Source: Raja brachyura (taxonomy: Eukaryota). Taken from it: a DNA stretch of 64,000 nt. Shown here in pieces: positions 3,501 to 64,000 of this stretch; position 1 is the stretch's first letter; each line of letters opens with the position of its first letter. The translations under genes and the position numbers were made by a program. The notes beneath the pieces were generated by a model that was given only the letters and a program-made list of their open reading frames with translations, did no database searches and was not told where the DNA came from. The DNA lies in contig OY740786.1 of the NCBI GenBank assembly GCA_963514005.1, forward strand, positions 21,700,001 through 21,764,000. The letters run 5' to 3'.

Positions 3501-6500
3501 ACTCAAGAGGAACTTTCAAAGTTTCAAAATAAAGAGGAAAATCGCAGAGCTATGAGGAACATGCCTGGGAGTGGGACAAATCCAAGAGCTAGCACTAACA
3601 TAATGAATCAACTGCCAGCAGTAGCACGATGGATCAACTGCAAGATTCATCTGATTTTAGTGGGGATTCAGTGTCAAAACCTAAAAGCTGGATTTTCTTC
3701 CTTCATGGAGAGTTTAGAATGCGGGAGGCACACTTAACCCAGTTGTTTAGGATGAACAAAGGGTAGACACCAGACCTCCTGCAGCGTAATATGTGGTAGC
3801 CCACTGAGAGCGAGTTCTGTATATGATGGTGGATGTTATGAGACTGCATAAATTCTCCTAAATGTCTGAGTTTCTATGACTCACTGGATTAAAGGAGAAT
3901 TGGAATACAGCTGAAATAATAAAAAAGTTGGTCTTGTAAAAGTGGTCTTCAAGAAGTTGGATTGTTGTAAAAATCCACCTAGTTTATTGATCTCCTGCTC
4001 AGAGGCTAATATGCGACTGCTGTCCCACAGTAATGTAGTTAACTCTTGCCCTGTGACCCGGTTAAGCAAAACCCTCTTCTATCCTGGGTGTCCTTGTATA
4101 TCAGTCACTGAAAGTAAGCATGCAGGTACCGCAGGCAGTGAAAAAAGCAAATTGCATGTTGGCCTTCATTGCGAGAGGATTTGAGTTTAGGAGCAAGGAG
4201 GTCCTACTGTTGTACAGGACCCTGGTGAGACCGCAGCTGGAGTATTGTGTGCAGTTTTGGTCTCTTAATTTGTGGAAAGGACATTATTACTATTGAGGGA
4301 GTGCAGCGTAGGTTCGCCAGGTTAATTCCTGGGATGGTGAGACTGACACATGATGAAAGAATGGGTCGACTGGGCTTGTATTCACTGGAATTTAGAAGAA
4401 TTAGAGGGGATCTTATAGAAACATAAAATTCTTAAAGGATTGGACAAGGTAGATGCAGGGGAAATGTTCCCGATGTTGGGGTAGTCTAGAACCAGGGGTC
4501 ACAGTTTCAGAACTGTGACCCCTGGTAGGCCATTTAGGACTGAGATAAGGAAAACTTTTTTCACCCAGAGAGTTGTGAATCTGTGGAATTCACTGCCACA
4601 GAAGGCAGTGGAGGCCAAGTCACTGGATGTTTTCAAGAGAGAGTTAATTTAGCTTTTAGGGCTAAAGGAATCAAAGGATATGGGGAGAAAGCTGGAATTG
4701 GGTACTGATTTTGATCAGCCATGACCATATTGAATGGCGGTGCTGGCTTGAGGGGCCGAATGGCCTATTTTCTATGTGTAGAAGAAAAAAATTAAAATCT
4801 CCATTTACTTAATTTTGATCGGAATTAAACAAGGTGGCGATTGGCATCTCTCGTTGACCAGGTGCAGCAGAATATCATGGGAATTTGGCAAAACAAGTTT
4901 CAGACGTATTATCTCTTGTTTGGGAATGCATGGCATGGTGAATTAAAGCACAGCAAATTAGGACATAGATAAGGAAGCCTGTTTCTCAGTGGAAAGTTAC
5001 TGAATGCTGGATCACAATGTGACAATGTAACTAATGTGATCAAGAACACAACAGCAATAGCTGGGTTGACCACCCGTGCCCCCTTCCACCAGTAGCGCAG
5101 AAACGTTGCAGAAATGGGGGCTTAAGATTGGCTTGGAGAGGGGACAGTGGTTGAAAGATGAGATCGAATAATGTCAAGATGCCCTTGTATTATGTTTGAC
5201 GTGTTAACCATCTGTTGTTGAATAAGATTAACATAAACAAAAAGTATATTAAGACTAATTAAATAATTAATACCCATGTAGTAGATAATAATAACAAGAA
5301 AACATATAGCCAAGGACGAAGTATATTTTCGTATAGTTGTATCTAACAAAAAAAAAGTTGTTTTCTACACTGTATAACTGTCGGCTAATTCTGCTGCAAA
5401 GACAAAGAAACGGTGAGCAGTTAACTGCCACCATCTCTCCATGATATCGTGCAATAAAGCCTCTTGAAGCGAACCTCAAAGTCTGTTTTTCCTTTAATTT
5501 TCCTCTGTCAATTTCCTCAACACTATGTTCCTATGTCTCTATCGAGTAGTTAGGTCACCAGCGTCAGTTTAGTTTCGTTCAGTTTAGAGATACAGCGTGG
5601 AAATAGGCCCTTCGGCCCACCGAGTACGTGCCGACCTGCGATCCCTGCACACTTACACTATCCTACACACACAAGAGACAATTTATAGTCTAAAGAAAGG
5701 TCTCGACCTGAAACGTCATCCATTCCTTCTCTCCAGAGATGCTGCCTGGCCCGCTGAGTTACTCCAGCATTTGGTGTCTACCTTTGATTTAAACCAGCAA
5801 ATGCAGTTCTTTCCTACCCAGAGACAATTTACAATAATACCAAGCCAATTAACCTACAGACCTGTACATCTTTGGAGTGTGGGAAGAAACCGGAGCACCC
5901 GGAGAAAACACACGCAGGTCAGACCGTACAGACAGCACCCATAGTCAGGATGGAACCCGAGTCTCTGGAGCTGTAAGGCAGCAACTCTACCACTGCGCCA
6001 CTGTGCAGTCCATTCTCCTCAGGGGAATGGCAACAAACATTGGTCTTGGAATGTAGGTCACATCATGCAGGGTTTTCTGTGCAAAGGTTACTCATAAATA
6101 GTTTCATTTGAGTTGGACTGGAAAAAAAAATGTATTTACCGCAGAGAACAATGAGGTTTATGAACTCACCCTTCCTTTAACACGATTGGCTGCTCAATGC
6201 TCCTGTGGTCCTTTCTTCCGGAGGAGGAGATTAAATCTAGGAACTTCATACAGATCACAAACGCAGTGTTAAAGGGGGCACATCTGGACGTACAATCTGC
6301 CAACAAACTCCCTTTCTCTGCAAGTATGCGACTGTCTGTGTATCAGAGGAGTTGTGACCCTGGAAAAATCCAGAGATCTGTCCCCAGACAATTACGCAAT
6401 TTGACATTTCCTTCATTTAAGAGTATTTCTGTCAAAAAAAATTAAAAACAATCTATTTTCCAAGATCAGGATAAGTTTACAGATGTTGGCTCATAAGCAG

Positions 6501-9500
6501 TGCTTTTACTGATTGAGAATTTTATATTTGCAACATCTCAAAGGGAGTCTTTGGGATTCCGATAAAAATCTAGATAAACAATAGTGGTAAAAAAACCTCA
6601 GCTGCTCAGGCACCCAATCCAAACTGACTCCAACAGACCCTACTCCTAACGTCACCTCCAAAAAAGCCAAAATAATTCCAATTCAACCCCAACTGAATTC
6701 TCCCACCACCACAAAAGAATATACCACCCAAACCCCACCCCAAATAGAACTCCAATCATGACCCATCCCAACAGATCCCAGATTTCATCATTACCACATC
6801 CTCACCCAGAGCAACCCAGCACTATAACCATGTCCACAGCACTCCAACCCAATCCCCAGCTCGTTAGGATGCCAAACTTAACTCTGCCTCAACAAGACTC
6901 CATCCAGTATAGTGGGTGGCAGTCAGGAGAGCATAGTGGCGTGCAGGGTAGCACAGTGATGCAGCTGGTAGACCTGCTGCCTCACAGCTCCAGCGACCCG
7001 GGATTGATCCTGACTTCGGGCCTTGTATATGTGGAGTTTGCAAGTTCTCCCTGTGACCGCGTGGGTTTCCTCCGGGTGCTCTGGTTTAGTCCCACGTCCC
7101 AAAAATGTGTGGGTTTGTAGGTTAATTGGCTTCTGTAAATTGTCACGCGTGTGCAGGGAGTGAGAGAACATAAAAGTTGTGTGAATGGGTAATGGATGGT
7201 CTGTATGGACTCAGTGGGCCGAAGAGCCTCTTTCCATGCTGTATCTCTAATCTAACCCTAAACTCCACCTCAATGGAATCCCATATTCAAATACAACCCC
7301 AAAGCCAATCTACTTCTAATCACAAAGAACATCACTAAAACCAAAACTGGCTACAGACAGGTCAAAAGATCTCTTCCATTTAATCGTGTGGATGTCTAAC
7401 ATGTTTTTCACAATCTCATGACACCACAGGTGCCAATGAGGTTCTTTGAAGTGTTAGCATTGCCATAATGCTACCAATTCCACATGGCAAGATAAATGTA
7501 ACCTGGCCTCAATTAACTGATGGATAAATATTGGCCAGGACATTAAGGTTAGATTTCACGGGCAACACGGCATATGATGAATACGTTTTTGAATCTTCAA
7601 GATGGATGTTTTTCAGAGCAATTATGACCAAGGCATCTACATCAATAAAATATTACTTACGTTTCTTACAGCATCTGTGTATTTCTTATCATTAAAGTGC
7701 TCGTAGAAAGTGGCCATGTAGGATTCCTTAAAACTTGCCTGCAGATGAAATTGAAAAACATGTTACTCTTCAAGTGGGTAAGCAAGGAGATATCAGTGAG
7801 GTATTTATTGGCATTCCATTGTTAATCACTAAAACCGGGGGCTGCGAAATTCCATAATGACATTGCTCAGCAACAGAATTGGAGGCTTTTTGTTCACTCA
7901 GGGGATGTTGGAGTTACTGTCAGGGAGTGGCTGACACTCATAGCTCAATAGACAATAGACAACAGGTGCAGGAGTAGGCCATTCGGCCCCTTGAGTCAGC
8001 ACCGCCATTCAATGTGATCATGGCTGATCATCCCCGGTTTCCCGTTCCTGCCTTCTCCCCATGTCCCATGATTCCGCTATCTTTAAGAGCCCTATCTAGC
8101 TCTCTCTTGAAAATATCCAGAGAACTGGCCTCCACTGCCCTCTGAGGCAGAGCATTCTACAGAATTCAACATAGAACATAAAACATCCCCACACAGCAGG
8201 ATCAAAGTTTCCCACTGTGAGGGAAGGCACCAAAGTCAGTCTCTTCCTCAGATGTTCCCCACTGTTCACCCGTGGTCGGGGCCTCCCCGAGCCCTCCACA
8301 GTCACCGCTACGGGCGGCCAGATATTCAGGCACCTTTGCCGGGGTGATGTAAGTCCGACATCGGGGCTGGGGGATGTCCTCAACGGCCTGAACCTTGAGT
8401 CGGCCCCCTCCTACCGGAGTCCCTGGCTCCCAAAGTCCGCAGCGCACGGCGGGTGGAGATAAAACACTGGCAGCCCTCGGCAAAGGGCCCCAGGATTCCA
8501 TGGAGTTGTTCACTCCGCCCGTGTTGGAAGCTCTCCAAACCAGAGCTCCACGATGTTGGAGCTGCGGCCCAACGCTCCGGAGCTCCAAACGGCGACCCAG
8601 GTATGCATCGCCCGATCCGCGGTGAATCCAGCGTCGCACCGGCAGGAAAGGCCGCTCCGATCCAGCTGGTAGGCCACGAGGTGGGGGGCGAGGACGCGAC
8701 TCGGAGAAATAGTCGAGTCCCCGCCAGGAAGCGACTGGGAGTTAGTTTCCCCCTTAACCTGCCCCCCTCCCCCAGATATAAAAGTTAAAGACTCCCCCAA
8801 AAACAAACTTTAAACTGACTAAAAATAAAAAAAAGATGGAAAAACAAACGGGCTGCAGGTAGAGGCTGCTGTCAGTGCAGCGCCCCTAGTGACAAATGAG
8901 CGAGGGCTATATGTATGTAGTGATGATTGTATTTAATCTATGAACCACTGTTGTTTGTTATACTATTCTTATACCAATGTAAAGCACTTTGGCCAACGAG
9001 AGTTGTTTTTTAAATGTGCTATATAAATAAAAGTTACTTGACTTGACTTGACTTAAACACTGGTTCACTGGTCCAGGGCTCCCGATAACAAGTCCAGTAA
9101 CAACGACATTATGGAATTGAACAGTACACCTAATTTGCTGTACAAAGGGTCTTCACACATAATATTGTGGGCTGATTTCAGCAGCGTTATAAAGTTGAGT
9201 GGCATGAACTAGTTTTTTTTTATTAATTCACTAAACAGTGATTACCAAGGGTGATGTATTAAAAGCAGATGACCAACCATGTTTTTAACATTTACTAAAC
9301 AATGTAAAATAAGATCTTTTATGAACAAACAGGGACGTGGCAGATAAATCAGAGTTGCACGCATGTTGAGAGTTTACATACTTTGTTACAGATTCAGAGG
9401 CAGATCATTCCAGGAGATCGAAAAGCCTTTGCACATACCATAAGCAAATGTTGGCAGCAGGATCACATAATTCCTTAAATCTACTCCTCCGTGGGTGCTT

Positions 9501-12500
9501 GAGAACATTTCAAATAATCATAACAAATTATGAAGCATGTCGGAAGAAATTGTGTACGCTCCCAATTCCCAGAAGGAAGAATGGACTGACAGGCCTTTAT
9601 AGTTTGTTTTACGATACAGCATGGAAACTGGCCCTGCAGCCCACCAAGTCCATGCCAACCATTGATCACCCCGTTCAAATTGAATCTTAGATGGACAACA
9701 TAGTGGATTCTATTCTATGTAAATCCACTTTCGCATCAATTGTCCACATGTTAGGGGCAATTTACGGAGGCCAATTAGCCTACAAACTTGCGCATCTTTC
9801 GGATATGAAAGAAAACCGGAGCACCCGGAGGGAAACCAGGCAGTCACGGGAAGGACGTGCAAACTTTACACAGAGAGCAACCGAGTTCAAGATTGAACCC
9901 GGGTCTCTGCCGCTATGAGGCAGCAGTTCTACTAGCCAGGGCTCTCACTTAATTTTTTTTCTCTGTTGTCAGCCGGGCAACCTAGGCAGCGTTTTAGATT
10001 GCCAAATGACAGATTAGGTGGTCATTTAGGATGGCGTGCGATAATGTGCTCGGACAAAGGGCGTAGTTACCAGTCGGAATTATGCTCAATGAAGCATTCA
10101 CATATTATTTCTGCTTCAAATAAAGTCACAAACTAAACATATTCACCAATCAAGACATGATATATACCACAATGACATGCAGCAAAATTATAAAATACAG
10201 TATCTCACCTTTTTTTACACATTGCAATTAATGCAATTTCTATTAGTTCTTTCCACTTCCAAACAAAAAGTGGTTGGATTATGCAAGCATGTTTTGGACC
10301 GAAACTTATCATGACATGTCCATAGCATGGGTCGTTATTGCTATTGGCACAGAAACACTCTCGCTTCCCACATAATTTATCCATAACAAAATATACAGGT
10401 TGCAAGGACATTTCTAAAGGCATTTTATGATAATAGTTGTTAAAACCGACTATACCCATCTGACAGGTTGTCATTACACTAACTGACAAGAGATGGCCAA
10501 AGGACATAACTGCAGCAAATGTTCTTTTGGTAATATGTTTAAAGTTGTCAAAACACCACATTAGCGGACATTCAGATTAGATGTAACTGTTGTGAACAGC
10601 AATGAAGATACCCAGTTTGTAAACACGAGATTAAAAAAAAATTATTGATAAACGCTGTTTCCACTACAGAATTAACGTTAAAATTTCTCCTGAACTGAAA
10701 TATCTCCTGACCAAATTTGTGATGTATATGACCGACTGTAGAAGTAAAACCTGGATAAATCCAACGTATAGTTGTGAATGTTGCTCATTAAATAACTACA
10801 GTACTGATACTCCATATTAAGAGCATTGATTTGCCATTAAAATGAATTCTGTAATAACGTGTTAACGGTAGCAGTGACAATCGAACACTGCAGTTTTAAT
10901 GTTTCAATTGTTCACAATTTAATTAATCCATCTTTATGGACTAAAACAAATAATAACATTGGGAATTAAAACACATTTCATTGCATTCCGTTATCAAACA
11001 TAGTCAATGTTCGCTCTGAAGACATTTCCAACACAATAGTGTCGGGGGAGGGGGGGGGGGGGGGGGTGTGAATCAGTGCGGGATGGATAGATGGTGGGTG
11101 GGTAGTTGAGAAGGCAATCGGTGCGGAATGGAAAGATTGAAGCGGGTAAATTAGTACGTGTTGGTTGGAGCATGTAAAATTGTGAGGGGAAATCGCGGGC
11201 AATGTCAGTGGTATTGAGTGGGGGGATCAGTCCGGGATAGACGGGGGAGATCTGTGCAGGATGGATGGGGGGGGTCAGTACAGGATGAATGGGAGTAGAC
11301 AAAAATGCTGGAGAAACTCAGCGGGTGAGGCAGGATCTATGGAGCGAAGGAAATAGGCAAAGTTTCGGGTCGATACCCTTCTTCAGACTGTTCCCCCCAT
11401 TCTTCTTGAATGGGGGGATCAGTACAGGATGGACGGGGCGGGGATCAGCGTAGGATGAATGGGGTGATCAGTACAGGATGGATGGGGTGGGGGGGGGGGG
11501 GGAGAGGGGACAGTACAGTGTGGATCTGAGGGTCTGTGCAGAATGAATGGTGATCACTGCAGGATGAATGAGGGGCTCAATACAGGATGAATGAGGGGGT
11601 CAGTACAGGATGAATGGTGGGGCCAGTAAAAGATGAATGGGGAGATCACTACAGGATGGCTGGGGGGGATCGGTAAAGGGTAAATGGAGGGTGGGTTCAG
11701 TACAGGATGAATGAGCGGATCAGTACAGGATGGATGGGGGAGCAATGCAGGATGAATGGGGGGTGCAGTGCAGGATGGATGGGAAAGGCGGTGAGTACAG
11801 GATGAATTGGGGGACAAGTGTAGGATGGATGGGGGGGTGGCAGGAGAATCAATGCGAGGTGGATAGGGAGATCAGTGCAGGATGAATAGAGGGGGGGGTT
11901 GATGGGGAGGGGAGACCAGGGGGTGTCAGTGAGGACTGAATAGAGGCGGGAATGGCGATCAGTGCGGGATGGAGTGGAGGGGTCTCAGGATAANNNNNNN
12001 NNNNNNNNNNNNNNNNNNNNNNNNNNNNNNNNNNNNNNNNNNNNNNNNNNNNNNNNNNNNNNNNNNNNNNNNNNNNNNNNNNNNNNNNNNNNNNNNNNNN
12101 NNNNNNNNNNNNNNNNNNNNNNNNNNNNNNNNNNNNNNNNNNNNNNNNNNNNNNNNNNNNNNNNNNNNNNNNNNNNNNNNNNNNNNNNNNNNNNNNNNNN
12201 NNNNNNNNGTCATCGCTTATCAGACAGGGATGGCATCATCGCCCCGCTGCCTTGGCCGTCCCTGTCCACCGCCAAGTGCCGCCGCCAAAGGGGGAGGCAA
12301 TTGGGATCTCCTCGCCACTGCCTCCCCTCCTCCAACAGGAAGGCGCGGGGCTGAGCATTGCAGCTGCTTCAGACGGCGGAAGGAGGCCTCCCCCTCCCTC
12401 CCTCCTCCCGGCCTCGGCGTGTGGGAGGGTTTGTTTTGAAAGCAGCGGCCGCTATCAGGGCGGGCGGGATGCGGCATGAGGAGGAGTAGGTGGAGCCACT

Positions 12501-15500
12501 GTCGCTGCTGTGTGGGGCCGTCATTCGCTCTGACCCTCCGTCACTACAGTCGCCGCCGACACGAAACGTCACGTTCCTTTTCACCAGAGATGCTGCCTGA
12601 CCCACTGATTTACTCCAGTTTTTTGTGTCTATTTTTGGTATAAACCAGTATGTACAGTGCCAAGCCGGGCAAAATGACTTGGTATTTAGGTTACCAGGCG
12701 GAACTTTGGGTGGTCAATGGCACCCGGGCAACCGCTAATTTCAAGCCCTGCTAGCTATGCCACTGTGCCACCCATAGTTCTGTGGTTCCATCTTTCTGTT
12801 GTTCACTCTCAAGGCATCAGCTGTTGCTAGCAAAGCTGGGGTTAAATGCCCATTGCTGAGAAAATGGCGTTGAATCACCTTCTTCCTGAATTATTGCACT
12901 CTATATGTGAAAGATGGTCCCACAATGGTGAGCGTCTTGCTCTACCATGTCAGTAGGCAGTTCAGTCGTTTATTGTCAAATGGGATGAAATTCCTTGTTC
13001 ACATGAAAGTTACCGAGCAAATAGTATACACGGTAATGATGGATACAACAAGATAATACCATGCCACATGAAAAACATCAAAATATGCAATGATTGTAAT
13101 AGAATCTAAAGTAGTACAAAAAAACGTAAGTGCAATTACAGAATTACCTAATGAGGTAAAGTTAAGAGTAAAAGCACGTGGTGATATCTCCGGGAAGGGG
13201 GTGGGGAAGAAGCTGTTCTGAAGTCTGAATATCCGAGCTTTTAAGGCCCTGTACATTCTCCCAGAAGATAGAGGTGATAAAAATGGAATAGGCAAGTTTT
13301 TTTCTCTCAAGAACTTTATTGATACAGTTTGGTTAAATAATAATATAACATTGATTTTCACAATAACTTTTCATGGAAATTTGCCTTTTTGTTTTGCTTA
13401 AATAACTATGGAATGTTCAGCTCTGCTAAGGTTCTGTCCAATTGTCCACACTCCCACCAAGCATAGTTAAAGCATGTAAGATAGACACAAAATACTGGTG
13501 TAACTCAGCAGGTCAGGAAGCATCTCTGAAGAAAAGGAATAGGCAATGTTTCGGGTAGAAACCCTTCGTCATACTTATTAAAGTCTGAAGAAGGGGTTTG
13601 ACCCGAAACGTCACCTATTCCTTTTCTCCAGAGATGCTGCCTGACCCACTGAGTTACTCCAGCATTTTGTGTCTATCTTCAGTGTAAACCAGCATTTGCA
13701 GTTTCCTGCTACACAGTTAAAGTATAGATGGGAATGGTGAATTGGGACTACTGCACCGTTAAAACATTACATTCTCCATTGGAGTGTGGAATAAATGAAT
13801 AAGACGACTTACAGACTTGGATTTCGATAAGCTACCCAAGGTCTGGATGGTCTTGGATACCAGAGTCAGGGTCCGTGCTGTTAACGGGTCCTGAAGAGAA
13901 GAGATGATTACCAGATCCTGATCAACACATTCAAACGGTAGTAAGCTGGAAAAACAACCAGGTTCTATAAATGCAATGTTGGTGAGGAGAAACCAGGGAG
14001 CACGAGGGGAGATTCCATGTTTATTATTTTGTTATCTTCAGTTTCCCTCCCAATTTTTGTAATTTGAAATCGATTTCACATCGGAATAGTTGAATGCCAA
14101 TACCTATCCTGTTTACCTTCATCTTGGTAATAGAATGATAACGTAGTCAATCACCACTTGCGGTCATTAATAGCAGTTGAGGTCAGGTTGCAGCTATGCA
14201 CTATGTTGCTTAGACAGTACCTCAATACCTGAAATATTATGTGTACTTGTGGTCACCATACTATAGTAAGTATGTGGAGGCCGTATAGATGTGTACAAGA
14301 GGTTTACTAGGATGCTGTCTGGATAAGGAGAGGTTGGACAAACTAGGATTATTTCTTTCTGGAGTGTTGGAGTTTGAGGAAAGATCTGACATAAGTTTAC
14401 AAAATCGAGAGACATAGGTAACGTGGGCAGTCGCAGTATTTTTCCTAGGGTGGCATGTCAATAACTAGAGGGCATAGATTTAAGGTAAGAGGGGGAGGTT
14501 TAAAGGAGATATAGGAGGAAATTCTTTAAACATGGTATGTTCTAACAAATAATCTATTTTAATAATGGAGGTTGAGTGATAAATATTAACCAGAATACTG
14601 GGAAAAACTCCCATAGCTGAAACCTGGGTTATCCTCTGACAGTGCATGCTCCCTCAGTACTGCGATGGAACGTTTACCTGGGGTCAAGAGTGAGAGAGGG
14701 GCTTATGTGCTTCTGGTGGAATGCATTACCAAGTATTAGTTAATATTAAATCATTGAAACAGGAATGTCTTGTATAGTTAATGATTTACATAAAGGGTGG
14801 AATAGAGTCAATTAGGTGCCTATGCATGTAAGTGAGTCCTTATATTGAAGGACCCACACTGTGGGCAAACATGAACTTTGCCTGGTTCCCAATATGATGT
14901 TCACATGTCCAGTTCTATTTGCTTGCCCTCCGTACTCTATAGAGCTAGGTTTTTGAGAAGGCATGATGACCATTGCAACAGACTAGTTCCTGATGTTGTT
15001 TGTTCTGGGCAAAGTCTACATGACGTACTTACTGGATGGTGAAGGTGGAGCTGGAACAGGTTCGGTGAAAGAATAGCTGGCGCAAAGAATCGCAGGAAGA
15101 TAAAACTGCTTACAGCTGTGTACCGAACATCTAGATCATCTAGAAAAACACAGTTTCCAAATTAGCAGTGGATAGCTATGCTTCGATTACAAAGATGTTT
15201 TAAAGTATATGAACTCAATCTTAGGACCGACTGTGTTTCATCAGTTAATGCTAAACCACAGCCACAAATATCACAAAAGGCAGCATGACAGCATATTGCC
15301 TCTCAGTACATCCCTAAACTATTCCTCTCTGGACTTCTCCAATTCTGGGTTTTCCTGCATCTCTGAACTTAATAATCTTCAGCTACTAGAATTTCCTCCC
15401 CACAATTCTTCACCTCTCTGCCACATTCAAGTTGTGCCTGAAAACTTTCTTCTTTCAGCACGCCTTTGCTCAACTTTTCTAATGTTTTCTGGATTTTGGG

Positions 15501-51963: not shown

Positions 51964-52017
51964 TAAACTAACTAACTAACCCAAGCAACCAACTAACTAC
52001 CCAACTAACTAACTAAC
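51964..52017. repeat. (AACT)n microsatellite, imperfect
   Basis: taactaactaac repeats. Confidence 0.85.
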
Positions 52018-52224
52018 TCTTCATAGAATCAATAGTCCAAAAGGCTAGAAGTTGTGGTAAATCCCAGTAAACACACATTTAACACCAGTTGGAATACTGT
52101 GTCCGGTGTTGGACACAAGACTAAAAGGACTCTGAGAGCTAACAGACGAGAAGATTCATGGATATTCTCAATATCTCCATGACCCATGGCTGCTCAAAAT
52201 TGACAGGGTGCACTCAGGATGGTA

Positions 52225-53798
52225 CAGTGCATTCAGAAAGTATTCAGACCCTTTCACTCTGTCCACATTTTGTTACGTTACAGCACAATTTTAAAATGAA
52301 TTTAATTTTTTTTTATCATTAAACTACACACAATACCCCAGAATGAAGATGCGAAAACAGGTGTTTAGAAATTTTTGCAAAGTCATTCAAAATAAATAAC
52401 TGAAATATCACAGTTCCATAAGTATTCAGACACTTTGCCATGACACTCGCAATTGAATTTAGGTTTATCCTGTTTCCATTGATTATCCTTGAGATGTTTC
52501 TACACCTTGATTGGAGTCCGCCAGTAGTAATTTAAATTGATTGGACATGATTTGGAAAGGCACACACCTGTCTATGTAAGGTCCCACAGTTGACAGTGCA
52601 TGTCACAGCAAAAGCCAAGCCATGAAGACAAAAGAATTGTCCGTAGACCTACAAGACAGGATTGTGTTGAGACACAGATCTGGGGAAGGGTATAAAACAA
52701 TTTTTGCAGCATTGCAGGTCCCGAAGAGCTCAGTGGCCTCCGTCAATTCTTAAATGGAAGAACTTTGGAACCACCAGGACTCTTCATAGACCTGGCTGCC
52801 CGGCCAAACTGAGCAATCGGGGGAGAAGGGCCTTGGTCAGGGAGGTGACCAAGAACCTGATGGTCACTCTGACAGAGCTCCAGAGTTCCTCTGTGGAGAT
52901 GGGAGAACCTTCCGGACAGACAAGCATATCTGCAGCTCTCCACCAATCAGGCCTTTATGGTAGAGTGGCCAGACGGAAGCCACTCCTCTGTAAAAGGCAC
53001 ATGACAGCCTGCTTGGAGTTTGCCAAAAGGCATGAGAAACAAGATTCTCTGGTCTGATGAAACCAAGATTGAACTCTTTGGCTTAAATGCCAAGCGTCAC
53101 GTCTGGAGGAAACCAGACACCGCTCTTCACCCGGCCCATACCATACCTACGGTGAAACATGGTGGTAGCAGCATCATGCTGTGGGGATGTTTTTCAGTGG
53201 TAGGAACTGGGAAACTAGTCAGGATCGAGGGAAAAATGATCGGAGCAAAGTACAGAGAGATCCTTGATGAAAACCTGCTCCAGAGCGTTTTGGACCTCAG
53301 ACTGGGGCAGAGGTTCACATTCCACAGGACAACGACCCTAAGCACACAGCCAAGACAACGCAGGAGTGGCTTCATGACAAGTCTATGAATGTCCTTGAGT
53401 GACCCAGCCAGAGACTGGACTTGAACCCGATCGAACATCTCTGGAGAGACCTGAGAATAGCTCCCCATCCAACCTGACAGAGCTTGAGAGGATCTGCAGA
53501 GAAGAATGGGAGAAATTACCCAAATACAGGTATGCCAAGCTTGTAGCATCATACCCAAGAAGACTTGAGGCTGTAATCGCTGCCAAAGGTGCCTCAACAA
53601 AGTACTGAGTAAAGGGTCTGAATACTTATGTAAATGTGATATTTCAGTTATTTATTTTTAATTACTTTGCTTTTTTTATTATGGGGTATTGGGTGTAGAT
53701 TGATGATAAGAAAAATAATTTAATCCATTTTAGAATAAGGCTGTAACGTAACAAAATGTGGAAAAGTGAAGGGGTCTGAATACTTTCTGAATGCACTG
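52225..53798 (+). mobile_element. Tc1/mariner DNA transposon, IR/DR type, full length, transposase pseudogene 52622-53608
   Basis: TA target duplications at 52223-4 and 53799-800; CAGTGCATTCAGAAAGTATTCAGACC TIRs with inner direct repeats (~52414-52438, ~53609-53633); MKTKELSVDL start, [36 protein letters not shown] (DDE triad); frameshifts and short deletions. Confidence 0.95.
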
Positions 53799-54580
53799 TA
53801 GAGTATCTTGAGCATCACGAACCAGGAGCACACAGTGGTCCAGCATAAAATGGTGCAAGGCGCATACCACCTCACAAACTACTCACCCACTTGGCCCATC
53901 CCGCACAATCTGTTATTCTGTATTTGTATTGTACTTTAATGTTCTGTTTGGCATTGCTTCAGATTGCACTGCAATCTATTGCACGGTTCTGCTGTTTTGC
54001 ATTCATTGTTGTATTTGTTGTATCTATCGCTACTATGTATATGTTTGCTCCTGTGAGCTTCGTGAGAAGGATGAATTTTATTACATCCTTGTGAGTATGA
54101 CAATAACCATCTGAATCTGTATCTGAGGTTACATTTTAATCAAATAACCTAACCAATTAATTTGATTGCTCTTTTAAAGAGCTAGGTACGTAAGTAAGTA
54201 AGTTTATTGGCCAAGTATTCACATACAAGGAATTTGCCTTGGTGCTGTGCAAAGAATTTGTCTTGGTAGGCCTGAATAGTAAGAGTAAAATGAGAACTTA
54301 CCAGTTTGAAGTTTGATCTTTATTTTATGAGGAGTTACGATGAGGGATTACGTGAAGACCCCCCCAGCACGCGTGCGCAACATTCTTCAAAGCAGTGGTG
54401 TGAAATCACAGATACCAAAGTTGACTAACATAGTAAGATAAGAGAGAACTTTATATACCAGTTGACCTTTATAATAAGAGAGTTTGGGAGCAGAGGGCAC
54501 GTAATCCCTCATCGTAACTCCTCATAAAATAAAGATCAAACTTCAAACTGGTAAGTTCTCATTTAATCTTAATATTTTAC

Positions 54581-56991
54581 ATAGAAACATAGAAACATAG
54601 AAAATAGGTGCAGGAGTAGGCCATTCGGCCCTTCGAGCCTGCACCGCCATTCAATGTGATCATGGCTGATCATCCAACTCAGTATCCCGTACCTGCCTTC
54701 TCTCCATACCCCCTGATCCCTTTAGCCACAAGTGCCACATCTAACGCCCTCTTAAATATAGCCAATGAACTGGCCTCAACTACCTTCTGTGGCAGAGAAT
54801 TCCAGAGACTCACCACTCTCTGTCTAAAGAATGTTTTCCTCATTTCGGTCCTAAAGGAATTCCCCCTTATCCTTAGACTGTGACCCCTTGTTCTGGACAC
54901 CCCCAACATCGGGAACAATCTTCCAGCATCTAGCTTGTCCAACCCCTTAAGAATTTTGTAAGTTTCTATAAGATCCCCCCTCAATCTTCTAAATTCCAGC
55001 GAGTACAAGCCGAGTCTATCCAGTCTTTCTTCATATGGAAGTCCTGCCATCCCAGGAATCAGTCCGGTGAACCTTCTCTGTACTCCCTCAATGGCAAGAA
55101 TGTCTTTCCTCAGAGACCAAAACTGTACGCAATACTCCAGGTGTGGCCTCACCAAGACCTTGTACAACTGAAGTAGAACCTCCCGGCTCTTGTACTCAAA
55201 TCCTTTTGCTATGAATGCCAACATACCATTCGCTTTCTTCACAGCCTGCTGCACCTGCATGCCTACTTTCAATGACTGGTGTACCATGACACCCAGGTCT
55301 CGTTGCATCTCCCCCTTTCCTAATCTGCCACCATTCAGATAATAGTCTACCCTCATGTTTTTGCCACCAAAGTGGATAACCTCACATTTATCCACATTAT
55401 ACTGCATCTGCCATGCATCTGCCAATTCACTCAGCCTATCCAAATCACCCTGCAGCCTCCAAGCATCCTCCTCACACCTAACTATACCCCCCAGCTTGGT
55501 ATCATCTGCAAATTTGGAGATGTTGCATTGAATTCCCTCGTCCAAATCATTAATATATATTATAAATAGCTGGGGTCCCAGCACTGAGCCTTGCGGCACC
55601 CCACTAGTCACTGCCTGCCATTCTGAAAAGGACCCGTTTACTCCTACCCTTTGCCTCCTGTCTGCTAGCCAGTTCTCTATCCACATCAATACTGAACCCC
55701 CAATACCGTGTGCTTTAAGTTTGTATGCTAATCTCTTATGCGGGACCTTGTCGAAAGCCTTCTGAAAGTCTAGATATAACACATCCACTGGTTCTCCCTT
55801 ATCCACTCTACTAGTTACATCCTCAAAAAATTCTATCAGATTTGTCAGACATGATTTACCTTTCGTAAATCCATGCTGACTTTGTCCAATGATTTCACCA
55901 CTTTCCAAGTGCGCTGCTATCCCATCTTTAATAACTGACTCTAGCAGTTTCCCCACTACCGATGTTAGACTAACTGGTCTGTAATTCCCCGCTTTCTCTC
56001 TCCCTCCTTTTTTAAAAAGTGGGGTTACATTAGCTACCCTCCAATCCTCAGGAACTACTCCAGAATCTAAGGAATTTTGAAAAATTATCACTAATGCATC
56101 CACTATTTCTGTGGCTACCTCCTTGAGTACTCTGGGATGCAGACTATCTGGCCCTGGGGATTTATCGGCCTTCAATCCGTTCAATTTATCCAACACCACC
56201 TCCCGGCTAACCTGGATTTCACTCAGTTCCTCCATCTTATTTGACCCCCGTTCCACTGCTATTTCCGGCAGATTATTTATGTCTTCCTTAGTGAAGACAG
56301 AACCAAAGTAGTTATTCAATTGGTCTGCCATGTCCTTGTTCCCCATGATCAATTCACCTGTTTCTGACTGCAAGGGACCAACATTTGTTTTAACTAGTCT
56401 CTTTCTCTTCACATATCTATAAAAACTTTTGCAGTCAGTTTTTATGTTCCCTGCCAGTTTCCTTTCATAATCTATTTTCCCTTTCCTAATTAAGCCCTTT
56501 GTCCTCCTCTGCTGCATTCTGAATTTCTCCCAGTCCTCCGGTAGGCTGCTTTTTCTGGCAAATTTGTATGCCTCATCTTTTGTTTTTATACTATCCCTGA
56601 TTTCCCTTGTTATCCATGGATGCACCACCTTCCCCGATTTATTCTTTTGCCAAACTGGTATGAACAACTTTTGTACTTCATCCATGCAGTCTTTAAATAC
56701 CTTCCATTGCACATCCACTGTCAACCCTTTAAGAATCACCTGCCAGTCTATCTTGGCCAATTCACATCTCATACCTTCAAAGTTACCTTTGTTCAAGTTC
56801 AGAACCCTTGTTTCTGACTTAATTTTGTCACTCTCCATCCTAAAGAAGAACTCAACCATATTATGGTCACTCTTGCCCAAGGGGCCACGCACAACAAGAC
56901 TGCTAACTAACCCTTCCTCATTACTCAATACCCAGTCTAGAATAGCCTGCTCTCTCGTTGGTTCCTCCACATGTTGGTTGAGAAAACCAAC
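54581..56991 (-). mobile_element. CR1 LINE (HER1-like), 5'-truncated, young, nested in the DIRS ICR
   Basis: Uninterrupted 763-codon ORF2 fragment 54679-56970 (APE C-terminus [29 protein letters not shown]), 3' UTR and (TTCTATGT)n tail; ATTTTAC duplicated at 54574-54580 and 56992-56998. Confidence 0.95.
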
Positions 56992-57179
56992 ATTTTACTT
57001 CGGAGTCACGTGAGTGACTACGTGAAGATTTCAAAGCTCTGTGATTTCATGCCCTGGAACGAGTCCATGCTCACACACTGCCAAGCTATGATGTAACGTA
57101 TTTCAGACATGAAACTGTGCTGAAAAACAAAAAGGTTTTTATTTCATACATAAAATAATAATGCCCCTACATTGGGTAA

Positions 57180-58169
57180 TCATGAAACAGAACTTAAAAT
57201 TTTCCCTGCAAATGTCTCGGGAGTGGCCACGGGTTTATTATAGAAACGCTGAAAAGTCCGTTCAATGCTCCAACCCGCTGTTGCAAGGATGTGGTTCATT
57301 GGAACTTCCATCATCCTTGCCGCCGATGTGGATGCAGCCCTGGTGGAGTGAGATTTGAAAACATTAGTATCCACCCCCGCTGCACCCAATACCACCCTTA
57401 ACCATCTGGAAATGGTTTGTACTGTGACCTTATAGTGAGGGCGTTTGTGGCTAATAATTAAAGCCCTCTCCATACCCCTGAGACTCAGGTGACCTTTATA
57501 TATCGCAATATACATGTCACGATGCAGAGCCGACAATCTGCAGGATAGGCCAGAAATTCTAATTTTTGGCCAGTGGATCCGGGTCTATCCTGTTTAAGTA
57601 ACCCCTGTGTAAGGAAAGTTATCTTGTCTTTTTTAATGTACATGGCGTCCATACTTAATTTATGTAGGGACTGGACCCGTTGTGCTGTTACAAGAGCCAT
57701 TAACATAACCATTTTATAGGTTAATTTATCCAGTGACAGTCCTGATATAGGTATCCATCCTCGAAGCATTATGCTTAGTCAGCACTATGCTTATGTCCCA
57801 TATATGGGTGTATCTGGGCCTGGGGGGATTGGAATTAAATGTACCCCTCATCAGTTTAGATACCAGTGGGTGTGATCCTACAGCCAGGTGATCACACCCT
57901 CGCCGCAGATAATTGGATAGGGCACTACGGGCACAATTGATGGCACTGCAGCTCAATCCCTCATCAAAATGGAGGGTAGCCTGGAACTCCAGCACTTCAG
58001 TGATGGTGGCTGTGTCGTATGAAGTGTTCGTTCTGGTGCAGAACACTTTCCATTTCTTCACATATGTGAGATATTGTCTTCTGATGGACTCCCTGCACGA
58101 CGCTGTGATGACATTTATCGTCCTGTCGGAGAGTCCGTAGTCCAGAAATGGCCTGTTCAGAATCTGCAA
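57180..58169 (-). pseudogene. DIRS ORF3 tyrosine recombinase, frameshifted in 3 pieces
   Basis: INCARSALS (N-domain), LVTAQRVQSL (catalytic R), FKSHSTRAAS (HxxR), AGWS..TFQRFYNKP (W and catalytic Y). Confidence 0.9.
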
Positions 58170-58183
58170 ACCAACAGGTTAAT

Positions 58184-60166
58184 TCAGTCATGCACGGATG
58201 ACTTTCCCCTGTCACAGGGTGTACCAAAAAGCTTGGACATTTGTTGATCCGAATGCAGGATTCTGCGGCCATATTTTGTACTACTGGGAACCATGTCAGG
58301 AACCATGTAGGCCAGTCGGGAACAACCAGGATACCCGAAGTGGTGTCTTGTTTGATTTTTTGTAAGGCCCAACTGATGAGGCAGAAGGGGGGAAAAAGCT
58401 AGAAAACAATCCCCCCCAATATAGCGAGAAAGCGTCCATCGCTATTGCCTCAGGGTCTGGTTCCCAATCAACATATGTTGGTAGTTGGTGATTTAATCTG
58501 GATGCAAAAAGGTCGATATCTGGTGTCTCATACCATTCTATAATATCGGCAAACACTTTCCGATCCAACATCCACTCGATGTTGTCGTTGAAATTGCGTG
58601 ACCTGGTGTCCACTACTGTATTTAGCTTACCTGGAAGGTAAGTGGCTGAGATCCATATATTCCTTTCCGGACACCAGTGCCAGATATTATTAACCAAATA
58701 ATCACATGATATCGACTTTATTCGACCCATATGCTTAATGTATGCCACCACAGTGGTATTATCAATCTGTAATCGTACATGCAAATGGTGCATGTCTGAG
58801 CAGTAAGCCCGGAGTCTATGAAATGCTCTCAGCATTTCTAGATAATTAATCCCTAGTGCTCCAAACAGGGTTAATTCTTGTGCATTCCATCTGCCACCAC
58901 ATGATGGTATTAGTTGCTCCCCAACCTTTTGCACTGGCATCAGTCTGTAAAGTAACCGTGGGATTCATAATCGCGATGGGGTTAGAACAATGCTGAATAT
59001 TGTCTATCCACCAATTTAACTCTAATTTAGCTTCCCCTGGTAGTTCCATAGGCCTATCAAAATGGCCTGCATGAGTTTTAAGAGCTAATATCTTTGCTCT
59101 TTGTAGATTTCGGTAATGGAGTGGTCCAAATTGTGCTGCTGGAAATGCAGCCACTAGTTTCCCAATCACTCTGACCGAATGGATGGTTTTCTGATGCTAG
59201 TGAGGCTTTTACATGCTTCCGTCAAGTCTGCCACTTTGTTTGGTGGCAAGGTGATAGACATTTGAACAGAATCGATAGTGAACCCCAAATAATCCAAGTA
59301 GTGGAGGGTCTCAATTTTGATTTATCTGGATGAATGATAAATCCCAGCTTTTGAAAAAGATGCTTTGTGGCTGATACTGCCAATGTAGCCTACTCTAAAT
59401 TTTCCTCTACAATGAGAATATCATCAAGGTAGGCCATAACAATATGGTTTTGTTTCCTCAAATGTGCCAAAGCTGTTTTATCAATTTGGTAAACAGCCTA
59501 GGTGCCAATGATAACCCGTTGGGTAAGGCCTTATACTGCCAAAGCTGTCCCATCCAGACAAATTTCAGATATTTCCGATGAACCTTGTGTATTGGTACTG
59601 AATAGTATGCACCTTTTAGGTCGATGCAAGCTATATAGTACCTGTTGGAGATTAGCTGTTTGGCTGAGACAAACATGTCCATTTTGAAATGGGCATACTG
59701 AACTGAAGTATTCAGTTCGGTCAAATATATAATTATGCGGCATCCGCCGTCTTTTTTGTTTTTGGTAAAAATGTTTGATACGAACTCTTGAGATTCTCTT
59801 TTTGTCTTCTCAATTACCCCTTTTGTGGTTAATCTTAAAAGTTCAGCATGGCCTTCTGTCCTTTCTTTTTTGTGAAAGTATAAACTTCCGGCTAGGTGTA
59901 TGCTGAACTGGGATGGGGAGTTCGTAAACAAATTCAATTTTATATCCCTGAATACTTTCCAACATGTAAGGATCAGAGGTAAACGTGCTCCACACATGAC
60001 GAAACAAGTGCAACCGTCCCCTAACCCGTGATGAGCCTAGACATGCTATGTTTACGAGGCAACCAGACCCACCTACCTCCATGGTTACCAGCGGTGCTGT
60101 GTTGGTTGTCTCTGTTGCTTCTTGTTCTGTTGTGTTGCTGCGTTGTGGGGTTGGCGCATTTTCCAA
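58184..60166 (-). pseudogene. DIRS ORF2: reverse transcriptase + RNase H + methyltransferase-like domain, several frameshifts
   Basis: RT: KKDGGCRII, CIDLKGAYYSVPIH, ALPNGLSLAPRLFTK, VMAYLDDILIV (YLDD ~59421-59432). RNase H: LQTDAS, GWG, INYLEM, QIDNTTVVAY. MT-like: PDIDLFASRLNHQLPTY..DAFSLYW..FPP. Confidence 0.9.
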
Positions 60167-61303
60167 GATGGTGGGCCGGCCTTCGAGCTTTCACCACCAG
60201 ATGGTCTTCGTTGTAGCGGTGCCAGATGGTTGCGTAGGGGTGCTGCCACCGCTGATATGGGGTTTTGGAGGTGGTTGGCACCTTTATCATGCCGATTGCC
60301 TTAGCCTCCTCATCCAGGTCTTTAACCTGCTTAGGGAGGTTGTCCCCAAACAGCAATGTAGGCGGCTGTGCACTGCTAGGCCTGTATAATCCCGCAAACA
60401 TGGGATTGAGTGCAGGTTTTATGATGCTCTTCCTGTAGCTGTTGATTTTAAACAGCGTGGTGCACAGAAGTGCTAGAGTGTCTTGCAGCTCTTCAGGCAT
60501 CTCAACCCCATTGACATTTCTGGCTACTGCTGTAATCCCAGCAGCTAGCAGTTTGAGGATTCTTTGGAGTTTCACCTCCTGGCTCCTTATGGTCGGGTTC
60601 ATGTTGCCCCAAATGGGGTTGTTGACAGCAGGTACATTAAGAGAAATACAATTCTCTGGCGCAAGGTATTTTTCTGTCGTATTGTTAATTGCTAGTTCCT
60701 GCAGCTGGTTCGTTGCCATGTAATTAATACTGGCAGCCGGCTTGGGATGCAATGGCAGACCTTTTTGGGTAGGTATAGCAAATTTATTGACCATACCCAA
60801 AAGTTCTTCTTTTGCGGCACCCCTAACACAGGTGAGTCTTCAGCCATGTCCCCTTCTTCAGGGTCAGCCCAGTTCTGACCCCCAATGCTCCCCTGCGAAG
60901 AGGGTGAGACATTTGGCAGTCCTTGATAGGAAACTGCTGTGGGTCTGCGAAGAGACCCACTGTGGCTCTGCCCCTGCATAAGCAGGTCACGCTGGAGCAA
61001 TTGCTCCACCATCCGCTCCATGCGGGAAAGACACCCGCCGTCACTATAGGCGAACGGGATCTCCTCAGGTCCGGACCCAGCCGAGTCTACGGACCTGTCT
61101 GACTTCCGGGTGGTTTTGCCGCCGGACCGCGGCGCACCTGCGGTCTGTTGCGGCGAGAAGTCGGGAGCTGCTGGCAGCACCTGCAGCTCTGGAGACTCGG
61201 CACGCTGCTGGCTGGTTTCCACAGCAGCGATTTTTGCCGCTGTTCTCCTCGATTTCCTGGACTCCATGCTGTTCTTCTTGGCTGTGAAAATACACACACA
61301 CAC
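60021..61303 (-). pseudogene. DIRS ORF1 (gag-like), frameshifted
   Basis: Overlapping ORFs 60692-61303 and 60021-60800; motifs PENCISLNVPAVNNPIW and LLFGDNL, located upstream of RT as expected for DIRS ORF1. Confidence 0.7.
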
Positions 61304-64000
61304 AGTCTTTTCCAGAATGGTAAGTACTTACCTCTGGTTGTCTTTTTGACTTATGCTGGAGGAGCGACGCTTCCTCCCGACTGTCGCTTCCGCAATGTGT
61401 TCGACGATATGTCGCACATGTGTGCTGGCGGGGTCTTCACGTAGTCACTCACGTGACTCCGAAGTAAAATGGCAGAATGGCTTGCTTCTCTGCAAAGTAA
61501 ATCTACAATAGTTTTGAGTATTCAGTTCTGGGGTAAAGGCATCACTGACAATGCACCACTTCCTCCCATTCCCGTCGCTCCTGAACTGAAGGGCTTCTGT
61601 TTCAGAGTGGAAAAGTCAACTGAATCCTTGTGTGTTTCCAGCCAGGTCAGATACGGACTGCTCATTTCCCCTCTCGAAAAGAACATTATTAGTGCATTGG
61701 TTAGGTATTAACATTAGGTGAGGTGACCAAAAGGTCAGGTCAAAGGGCTAACTGTTAATTAGCACCTTCTCGGAGAACTGAGAGGTTGAAATGCGGTGAC
61801 AAAAATGTAAAGTTTTTTTTGTTTGTTTTACATCAATATTTGCATTAAATAATAATTCTGACAAAATCTATTGGAGCATATCAACCTTATACCTCACAGT
61901 CTCACAATACAACTTTATTGAACAAAGGGCCAGCCTTCAAATAAAAAGAGTCAGGTTCCTAGACACTGCTCGAAATTGCAGCAAGCTGCAGCGAGGAATG
62001 TGATATTTCAGAAGACTCCATGGGGAAACAAAAATCGAAAGCATAATTTCTCCCTCTTCCATTTAGACCAACCCCACATCTTTCAGAACAAGATGCATGT
62101 AAGTTGAATATTTCGGCGGAGGGAAGCAGGGAGGGGATACCGGAGATTAATGTATTTGTTCCATGGTTGACTGTTAGAATGAGGCTTTTGTGCAGTTCAC
62201 CATCTGGTTTTGATTTAGTGCTATATGACACCAATTAATTAGCATTCATCACAAAGACGAGGCTCAGTTCGGGTGATTCAATAAACCACAGGTCCTACAT
62301 TCCTTCAGAATTTTAAGAATCCCAACATAATGGCTGTTGTTTTGGTCAGCATCAGATCATGATGAGCCATCAGCAGCAGTAATGTATCCCCTTCCCTCCA
62401 CTCCACACCCCACCAACAACTCCCTCCCTTCCCAGCCCTCAACCTGCTCTAACTTCACTTCTGCACCTAATCCCACAGTCTCCACACTCTCACCACCTCA
62501 ACATGACCTAACCCCCTGAACACACCTCTTGTTCCCTCACTCTGCTGCTATCTCAACGTATCCCCTCTCAGAGTGCCCTTTCTCTTTGAATCTCCCTCTC
62601 CCTGCCATATCCCACCCTATCCCTCTGGTTGACATTGGGATCCTCCTGGCTCTGATGAGAATGCAGAGCTCTCCTCATTGCTTTAGTCAACATTCCCAAC
62701 AAAACAATACAACCCATCAAAATAGATGAGTTGGCTATGCATCTCCTTGGCTGTTGCTGGGCTCTTTCTTTGCACCATAATCTGCCTCATTTGCCAAATA
62801 AGCACCGCTTACTCTTCCACAATCATGTACTGTGCGTGCATGGCTTTGGCACGCTCTGCTCAGCCAATACAACAGAAACCCTGTCCATGCAACCACCTCC
62901 CTCATTATCGTTTGATGTCAGAAGCATAGTAAAGATGAATCAACTAAATTGCTCCTCTCACTCAGCTCTATCGCTTGATGGAAGGAGCTAAACAAACATA
63001 ATGCGTTTCCCTGAGTAACACCCCCAGACCTCACATACACTCCTCCATGTTCCACCCATCATCTACTGGCCCCGGTCTCACCCTCACCCTCCACCCTCTC
63101 CTCCTTATCCCTCTCCACTCTCAGTCCTGATGCAGGGTCTCAACCCGAGATGATTCTCTCTCAGATTTTGTTCAACCCGCTGAGTTTCTACAGAGCTAGT
63201 TTTTTTGCCCACACTCATCTCTTGGATTACCTTGCGATCACTGACCTTGTCATGATACCTGACTGGACATTGGAATAGGAAAAGGCCACTTCATCCCTTT
63301 GGATCTGCTCTACCATTGACTGAAATTCAGAATGGTCTGTATATGAACTCAATCTCCCACCTTGCCCTGTAATCTTTAATCCCACTACACTATGTAAAAC
63401 CAACAATTCCTGTCATGACATTCTCTATTAATCCCCACGCTCGTCAAATTTTTGAGGGAGGAAGTTCCAGATTCTCACTACCCCTTGTGTGAGCTAGAGC
63501 TTGCTGACATCACCCCTGAAAGTCTGGCTCTAGTTTTAAGCTTCTGTCTGTATGTTCTGGGCCCACAACCCACACCATAAACAGTTTCACTCGTTCAACC
63601 CAAGCAAATCTTTCAATCCCCCTTTAATCTTTTACACTCAAGGGAACACAAGCCCAATGTGCACACGTGGACTTAATTGATTAACTCTGTAAACCCTGGG
63701 GACTGTAGGGGAATAAAGTGGATTGAAACTCTGAGCCCTGCGTGACAGAAATATTCCGGTCACTGAGATTGCTGGCTTACAGCCACTGTTCACCACTGTT
63801 CACTCACAGCAATCATCGGCAACAACAACAAAAACTGCTCTCAGCAGGTCTTCACACAGATTTCAGTTTTGTGTGCATGATAAAAAAATAGTGAGACAAT
63901 CTCACTTTAGTTTCCCAATAGAAAACAAACAAAAAGAACTTTGAATGGTCAATTGGCGGAGCTGAAGATGTAATGCCTCTTTATATGTTAGTCAAGGGAA

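Follow-up and report, generated by a model that had tools for sequence, protein, structure and literature searches.

Minimal hammerhead-ribozyme motifs recur throughout the introns of RASA3 in the 64,000-nucleotide stretch of Raja brachyura DNA analysed here (the window). The initial annotation, having seen intact cores only antisense to the pre-mRNA, suggested that self-cleaving motifs are purged from the sense strand. The locus raises the question of what these motifs are and whether their one-sided pattern reflects selection or chance. In our judgement, with a probability of about 0.88, they are ends left by 5'-truncated copies of an abundant EN+ Penelope-like retroelement (PLE), likely decaying neutrally, and the missing intact sense copies are likely a matter of chance. 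Published systems are compared below on the basis of excerpts of the papers cited.

Copies of the motif in RASA3

Protein-based mapping placed 17 exon matches, with 76-100% identity to skate or ray RASA3, on the minus strand between positions 323 and 50600, and further RASA3 exons bracket the window at C6:21780721 and C6:21692602. The host gene therefore occupies the minus strand throughout the window (1-64000) and all repeat copies are intronic, in line with the earlier assignment of the minus strand as pre-mRNA sense. The same exons were not among the matches of a RasGAP family search, and Pfam gave no domain in three short open frames containing RASA3 sequence.

An ungapped scan using the copy at 13583 as query found 15 places with at most 12 mismatches in 34 positions, 14 of which are family copies; the match at 60830 is a chance match. 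A profile HMM recognized 31 arms in the window (19 on the plus and 12 on the minus strand), and 16 of these span the hammerhead (10 plus, 6 minus). The roughly 15 copies of the initial annotation, and every lesion it named, were recovered where it had placed them. Nine head-to-head pairs account for 18 of the 31 arms, so these 18 are not independent copies.

The CUGANGA and GAAA boxes and the UH cleavage site are complete in 2 of the 16 spanning copies, compared with 110 of 459 elsewhere, and both complete catalytic cores (13585 and 24606) lie on the plus strand, antisense to RASA3. The sole strictly intact minimal hammerhead of the window occupies 13583-13615 on the plus strand, with CUGAAGA at 13585-13591, stem II at 13593-13604, GAAA at 13605-13608, a palindromic ACGU, a 2-bp stem I and a predicted cut after C13612. 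It belongs to a head-to-head fold-back insertion (13478-13717) made up of a tail-less minus arm with a broken core (13478-13575) and a tailed plus arm (13582-13717). The left copy of a putative target-site duplication, at 13465-13475 on the plus strand, matches 13715-13725 in 10 of 11 letters, and on the pre-mRNA strand the insertion is predicted to fold into a hairpin of -160.8 kcal/mol (z -19.9). The initial annotation had counted two fully intact plus-strand cores. Both do carry the core boxes, but the copy at 24604 is not fully intact: the plus arm (24605) of the fold-back pair at 24487-24692 has a 1-bp stem I, and its stem II closes with A-U rather than with G10.1-C11.1. In the adjoining fold-back pair at 24689-24927, the minus arm carries a GAAAG lesion. 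The observation that all minus copies are damaged held for the spanning copies, none of the six being intact. The damage in the listed copies includes truncation besides point mutation: that at ~42814 is the 5'-truncated left arm of a fold-back and lacks the CUGANGA box, which is also missing from the copy at 20326.

The remaining copies were delimited with the HMM. On the plus strand lie solo arms with broken cores at 5687-5822 (tailed), 21558-21655 and 63127-63194 (old), a solo tailed arm that has lost A15.1 (50699-50828) and a 5'-truncated arm without CUGANGA (12557-12661). The minus strand carries a solo tail-less arm with a broken stem III palindrome (11293-11390), a solo tailed arm with a CpG lesion at position 16.2 (30620-30745) and a solo arm that has lost U4 (39142-39237). 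Fold-back pairs are found at 36844-37002 (truncated 3' of the ribozyme), 42747-42949 (both cores broken or truncated), 44134-44293 (old, without a ribozyme core), 50214-50392 (truncated) and 51812-51965 (old, with broken cores), and a decayed pair (20260-20404) is accompanied by arm fragments within 20260-20626.

The parent element

The motif corresponds to the 3' end of an EN+ PLE, a pLTR plus a 37-nt tail that bears the hammerhead. The Penelope-type minimal type I hammerhead identity proposed in the initial annotation is thus upheld and extended by a parent, a full-length element elsewhere in the genome (L186). This element comprises an inverted tail-less copy (1-2971), a pLTR (3981-4616), an open frame of 1203 codons (4614-8222) and a second pLTR (7976-8598), with the hammerhead motif at the end of the pLTR. 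The frame, which lies between the two hammerhead-bearing ends, has an RT/zinc-linker/GIY-YIG arrangement with the motifs DKG, YIDD, CX4CX2C and VYCIRC...YIGET. The linker sequence CNRKRCYTC at residue 1070 has the CX2-5CxxC form of the RT-EN linker of Neptune, shared with Nematis. Pfam matches to RVT_1 (E 2.8e-4) and to GIY-YIG (E 9.9e-4) do not reach the curated cut-off; the protein has 1017 homologues at E <= 1e-20, and most of those listed contain RVT_1. The window is linked to this parent by a 5'-truncated copy at 26841-27526 on the plus strand, in which a GIY-YIG remnant (26841-27190; tblastn E 8e-9) is followed by a pyrimidine-rich UTR, a hammerhead arm that has lost G12 (27391-27526) and a tail; in blastn this copy is 77% identical to the full-length element.

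The family is abundant far above chance. An exact 33-mer of the motif occurs 9,355 times genome-wide, compared with zero for the reversed control, and the intact-core pattern matches 61,721 copies. At least 27 element copies are ~100% identical over 431 nt. The repeat is also visible in contig-level RNA runs of uncertain type, in which RNA ends, strand and level are not readable.

The 3' ends of 704 arms were bimodal, at HMM columns ~100 and ~137, ~37 nt apart. Among 161 head-to-head pairs, 75 had an arm of another length and were left unclassified; 68 of the 86 classifiable pairs joined one long and one short arm, compared with the 50% expected (p 5e-8). A TSD-like match of at least 10 nt was present in 32 of these 68 pairs, compared with 1.5% of shuffled partners. 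These insertions may have arisen through a nick made by the endonuclease and reverse transcription starting at either of two internal sites, a route seen in vitro for the anole Poseidon element (PMC11167929). Within the introns of RASA3 the copies lie in either orientation, and they probably decay neutrally.

Intact motifs on sense and antisense strands

We compared the strands in 28 other gene regions (1.89 Mb), with gene strands assigned by Pfam or protein exon matches rather than from annotation; several of the sampled genes are probably tissue-restricted. Outside the window the HMM placed 356 arms in sense and 367 in antisense orientation. Intact cores made up 61 of 229 sense and 49 of 230 antisense copies (OR 1.34, 0.87-2.06), and strictly intact motifs 28 of 229 and 37 of 230 (OR 0.73, 0.43-1.23). 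With divergence and pairing as covariates the ratios were 1.33 and 0.76, and both intervals spanned 1. An alignment-free count over the 28 regions gave 65 sense and 53 antisense intact cores, and 30 sense and 36 antisense strict motifs (CI of the ratio 0.50-1.39). Motifs complete in core and stems I and II were present on the sense strand in 14 of the 28 regions, and one 270-kb gene region held 11 strict sense copies; 24 of the 80 complete motifs stem from one gene. In the strand comparison, the genome-wide pattern gave 26 sense and 31 antisense matches, with 21.6 expected per strand. Purging of the sense strand was therefore not borne out. The comparison of intact-to-mutated ratios that the initial annotation had itself put forward as a refuting test came out about equal in the two orientations of this 1.89-Mb sample, which goes against its proposal.

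The annotation had also cautioned that CpG decay explains much of the damage, and our data agree. CpG decay is the main lesion and is equal on both strands: CpG columns are 70-83% identical, compared with 94% at other core positions, and none of 58 columns differs between sense and antisense at p < 0.05. CG persists in 722 of 1242 cells on the sense strand and in 698 of 1261 on the antisense strand, and unequal CpG decay between the strands was rejected as the source of any difference.

Within the window, none of six sense and two of ten antisense copies are intact (Fisher p = 0.50), as expected from the earlier caveat that two intact copies are not significant. At the 24% intact rate found elsewhere, none of six has a probability of 0.19. 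All nine spanning sense copies sampled in RASA3 are broken, an outcome with P = 0.085 under the pooled rate. Since intact motifs are about equally frequent on both strands of other genes' introns, the one-sided pattern in RASA3 is likely chance. The useful outcome is a negative one, that introns tolerate intact minimal hammerheads in sense orientation, and it agrees with published in vitro work in which such hammerheads were nearly idle without a partner or element protein.

Predicted activity and alternative readings

Among 112 core-intact copies, stem II, which follows a 5' unpaired base, has G10.1-C11.1 in 84 and GU in 16, with nearly no two-sided covariation. Stem III is palindromic and loopless, with ACGU in the family majority. 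Stem I consists of two pairs followed by an A-C mismatch in 81 of the 112 copies; of 101 copies that have both core and stem II, only 5 reach three or more pairs in stem I. An Rfam scan returned no hammerhead family among seven matches up to E 10, as expected for a loopless variant. The designed dimer is predicted at -12 kcal/mol, compared with a dimer minimum of -19 to -27 kcal/mol, and the predicted minimum-energy folds of monomer and dimer both differ from the hammerhead fold. Given the 2-bp stem I, the missing stem III loop and the long fold-backs, little cleavage activity is predicted, and the ribozyme motifs of these element ends are likely idle. A lone intronic copy would hardly cleave, as its stem III depends on a second copy and its stem I has only two pairs; paired copies would hardly do so either, because the upstream antisense arm would capture the sense arm in a long hairpin. 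Such a predicted near-absence of cleavage would leave little for selection to purge.

The proposal that intact cores survive only antisense to the pre-mRNA has the window's own counts in its favour, yet it is refuted for our sample by the intact cores and strict motifs standing in sense orientation in other genes (this would not hold if most of the genes in the sample were wrongly oriented or silent), and we consider it scarcely credible. A milder form, in which complete sense motifs occasionally cut the pre-mRNA, for example with the element protein or a partner copy, and are depleted less than twofold, is unlikely. The strict class leans antisense, so that the data fit a depletion of as much as twofold; its counts are 9 sense and 20 antisense in plus-strand genes (p 0.06), and 21 and 16 in minus-strand genes. 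In zebrafish, an intron with an efficient engineered hammerhead reduces expression as much as 20-fold (PMC11856399), and Xenopus introns contain fewer tandem retrozymes than expected (bioRxiv 10.64898/2026.07.22.740005). Core-intact copies are nevertheless commoner, not rarer, in sense, no alignment column differs by strand, and the density in sense does not fall short of what the genome-wide count predicts. A class found post hoc, in which core and stem II are present and stem I is missing, is in excess on the sense strand (17 versus 4, p 0.007), which can be taken in favour of mild depletion, although such depletion would itself predict no surplus of this class; a 0.29-Mb hold-out held none in sense and one in antisense, too few to settle the matter. 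A bolder version is a long shot: a still-active Neptune-type element whose ~62,000 intact hammerheads, thousands of them intronic and sense, would be latent protein-switched ribozymes, with host pre-mRNAs cut in trans once the element's protein is made, leaving both the mild (less than twofold) depletion and the stem-I-less excess.

Any orientation effect might instead reflect a splice-acceptor-like signal before the motif rather than cleavage. A retained spliceosomal intron counts among the traits of EN+ PLEs. Longer copies do have a pyrimidine tract and CAG immediately 5' of U2.1, ten copies have a donor-like site 79-112 nt upstream, and the D. virilis Penelope intron ends at helix I (PMC4209133). 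Copies with the tract and AG are, however, spread over both strands (31 sense, 39 antisense, p 0.40), and the only genomic locus with the apparent spliced junction that was read is not a spliced copy, making this reading very improbable. Spliced retrocopies found no support: the junction pattern has 20 genome matches versus 8,657 for the donor pattern, and the locus read lacks upstream element sequence.

Relation to known elements

As it stands, neutral decay of PLE ends joins a known retroelement class to a known ribozyme motif and is an ordinary case. The titles and abstract openings covered by our literature search report neither this family in skates or rays nor a sense/antisense bias of minimal hammerheads, and the family may already be catalogued in repeat databases. 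Like the minimal type I hammerheads described in metazoan PLEs by Cervera and de la Pena (2014, PMC4209133), the motif has CUGANGA and GAAA boxes, a single unpaired base before stem II, G10.1-C11.1, a loopless palindromic 15.2-16.2 and a location in the pLTR, and its copies are mostly dispersed singles with some close opposite-strand pairs. Its stems are shorter than in the Schistosoma families, with two rather than 4-5 pairs in stem I and four rather than 7-8 in stem II; helix I of the published motifs has 4-5 pairs, and two in the D. virilis variant. The excerpts of that paper name no cartilaginous fish among the hosts, and give ~4,000 copies in coelacanth and ~9,000 in Xenopus, compared with 61,721 here, the descriptors being different.

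The parent shares with Neptune/Nematis-type EN+ PLEs (Craig et al. 2021, PMC8557442) a single frame with RT, a zinc-finger-like linker and, at the C-terminus, GIY-YIG, a partial tandem arrangement giving pLTRs, an inverted 5'-truncated copy and a 30-40-bp tail at one end only. No difference in kind was seen in the parts of that account drawn on, the likeness being one of features rather than of an RT tree. The green anole's Poseidon element PAc (Frangieh et al. 2024, PMC11167929) likewise has a tail delimited by two 3' end points and a hammerhead at the pLTR-ORF junction. PAc belongs to a different clade and has its start codon at stem II, whereas the first Met here lies ~160 nt past the hammerhead core. 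Cutting by the PAc ribozyme required the protein of the element, and insertion did not depend on the ribozyme.

The young full-length copies, with two end points, one-sided tails and target-site duplications, suit studies of PLE insertion, and the ~62,000 intact-pattern copies would give great power for a genome-wide strand test in Raja brachyura. Non-LTR retrozymes (bioRxiv 10.64898/2026.07.22.740005) are also PLE-related type I hammerhead repeats of vertebrate genomes, but they form head-to-tail tandem units, whereas the copies in the window, which contains no head-to-tail tandem hammerhead array, are solo or head-to-head and tied to a coding parent. Among nine close same-strand core pairs, one is a 39-nt tandem.

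Identity of the hammerhead copies

Judged by their sequence, the motif copies are the minimal-hammerhead (min-HHR)-bearing ends of an EN+ Penelope-like element (PLE) with a linker of the Neptune/Nematis type. Many arms in the sampled gene regions (an arm being one copy of the element's 3' end, the pLTR plus a 37-nt tail) have as much as 1,047 nt of upstream sequence in common, which translates to the end of a reverse transcriptase (RT), a CX4CX2C linker and a GIY-YIG endonuclease. A full-length element at L186, a locus elsewhere in the genome, consists of a pLTR, a 1203-codon frame and a second pLTR with tail, and has an inverted tail-less copy upstream, the same layout as that described for EN+ PLEs by Craig et al. 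(PMC8557442). In the 2.7-Gb genome the exact 33-mer of the motif has 9,355 matches, a degenerate pattern for intact cores has 61,721, and the reversed controls have 0. At least 27 copies found by DNA search are ~100% identical over 431 nt, which marks one subfamily as very young. The 3' ends of 704 arms cluster at HMM columns ~100 and ~137; the tail of the anole PAc element is reported to be set by two RT start sites (PMC11167929). In 23 gene regions outside the window, about half of all arms begin no more than 5 nt from the first base of the motif.

With an HMM trained on the family, 31 window arms were located, 19 of them on the plus and 12 on the minus strand; 16 span the hammerhead. The copies and lesions named in the initial annotation are present in the sequence. 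Complete catalytic boxes occur in two arms, 13585 and 24606, both on the plus strand; the description of both as intact holds strictly for 13585 and not for 24606, which has a one-pair stem I and an A-U-closed stem II. A GIY-YIG remnant is kept upstream of the arm at 27391. A PLE linker/endonuclease remnant also lies at 40099-40446 (plus strand; tblastn E 1e-21); no hammerhead arm was detected downstream of it. The arm at 39142-39237 is nested inside a MITE-like element with 150-nt arms (38861-39479), and that at 11293 lies within a purine-rich minisatellite with a 23-26-nt unit (11220-11836), followed by a 215-nt stretch of N (11994-12208).

Intact motifs in sense and antisense orientation

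RASA3 lies on the minus strand and spans the whole window, with 17 exon matches inside and further ones on both sides. The exons share 76-100% identity with proteins of skates and rays, which suggests a skate or ray as the host. It had been proposed that sense-strand self-cleaving hammerheads are purged from its pre-mRNA, intact cores being found only antisense. This claim of strand-selective purging is not supported. Within the window, 0 of 6 sense and 2 of 10 antisense copies have an intact core (p = 0.50). In 28 gene regions outside it (1.89 Mb; gene strand from Pfam or protein exon hits), an alignment-free descriptor found about balanced numbers, namely 65 sense and 53 antisense for intact cores, 53 and 48 for core plus stem II, 36 and 44 for core plus stems II and I, and 30 and 36 for strict motifs (ratio CI 0.50-1.39), its reversed control giving at most 1 per strand. 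The genome-wide pattern gave 26 sense and 31 antisense in the sampled regions, versus 21.6 expected per strand. HMM scoring in 23 of the 28 regions found intact cores in 61/229 sense versus 49/230 antisense copies and strict motifs in 28/229 versus 37/230, a result unchanged with divergence and pairing as covariates, and 0 of 58 columns of the HMM alignment differed between strands at p < 0.05. Conservation is 70-83% at CpG positions, G12 and 16.2 among them, compared with 94% in the rest of the core, and does not differ between the strands, in agreement with the caveat, already raised in the initial annotation, that CpG decay explains many lesions.

Some results pull the other way. The strict class leans antisense, with 9 sense and 20 antisense motifs in plus-strand genes and 21 and 16 in minus-strand genes. 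A sense depletion of up to twofold is possible, on counts in which one gene contributes 24 of the 80 complete motifs, strands come from exon hits and the sampled genes are pooled regardless of expression. Copies in the 28 regions with core and stem II and without stem I number 17 sense versus 4 antisense (p 0.007, post hoc among ~70 comparisons), and 0 versus 1 in a small hold-out; purging alone does not predict such a sense excess. Many of these stem-I-less copies are truncated immediately before the CUGA box.

Head-to-head pairs

Nine head-to-head pairs account for 18 of the 31 window arms. Among 161 such pairs, 86 were classifiable by arm length and 68 of these combine a long with a short arm; 32 of the 68 have a target-site-like repeat of at least 10 nt, versus 1.5% in shuffles. 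The arm combination and the repeats together indicate that pairs are single insertions placing one copy on each strand. Intact cores are ~3-fold rarer in paired than in solo arms (OR 0.34; 23 gene regions outside the window).

Predicted ribozyme activity

Stem I has two pairs. Because stem III (ACGU) is palindromic and has no loop, the ribozyme is predicted to need a second copy; the minimum-energy fold of neither monomer nor dimer is the hammerhead fold. In pairs, the pre-mRNA would fold into a long hairpin, the antisense arm being transcribed first; for 13460-13730 the predicted hairpin has -160.8 kcal/mol. Published studies report no cleavage by single min-HHRs and little by dimers (PMC4209133), and an anole PAc ribozyme that cleaves only with the element's protein and is dispensable for insertion (PMC11167929). 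Intronic copies are thus probably nearly idle, which would leave little for selection to remove. The logic of the purging proposal holds for active ribozymes, since an engineered efficient hammerhead in an intron knocks down a zebrafish gene (PMC11856399). The features of note that remain are the family's very high copy number and its young full-length parent; counting copies across the whole genome would give ample power to settle a small residual effect.

Longer copies, among them L114:7050-7172 at another locus, carry a donor-like GT that precedes, by 79-112 nt, a pyrimidine tract with a CAG, putative splice sites recognized by sequence; this CAG stops one base before C3. Its placement is similar to that in D. 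virilis Penelope, where the intron ends at helix I (PMC4209133).

Other repeats in the window

A 771-codon LINE RT open frame lies at 54679-56994 on the minus strand, sense to RASA3 (Pfam RVT_1 E 3.6e-31); a 1025-codon frame in another gene closely resembles it, so the family is likely young. At 57180-61400 (minus strand) a fragmented element has an RT (RVT_1 E 8.5e-7) and further frames that we take to resemble DIRS gag, RNase H and tyrosine recombinase, Pfam matching none of these further frames. Terminal inverted repeats at 52262-53762 flank a broken, presumably Tc1-like, transposase-like frame, for which Pfam gave no match. A nested long inverted repeat of LINE-like 3' sequence lies at 22568-23114 (arms 102, 69 and 75 nt, 88-93%), and two short elements whose inverted arms match perfectly, over 44 nt at 18395-18580 and 67 nt at 54288-54564, are likely young MITEs.
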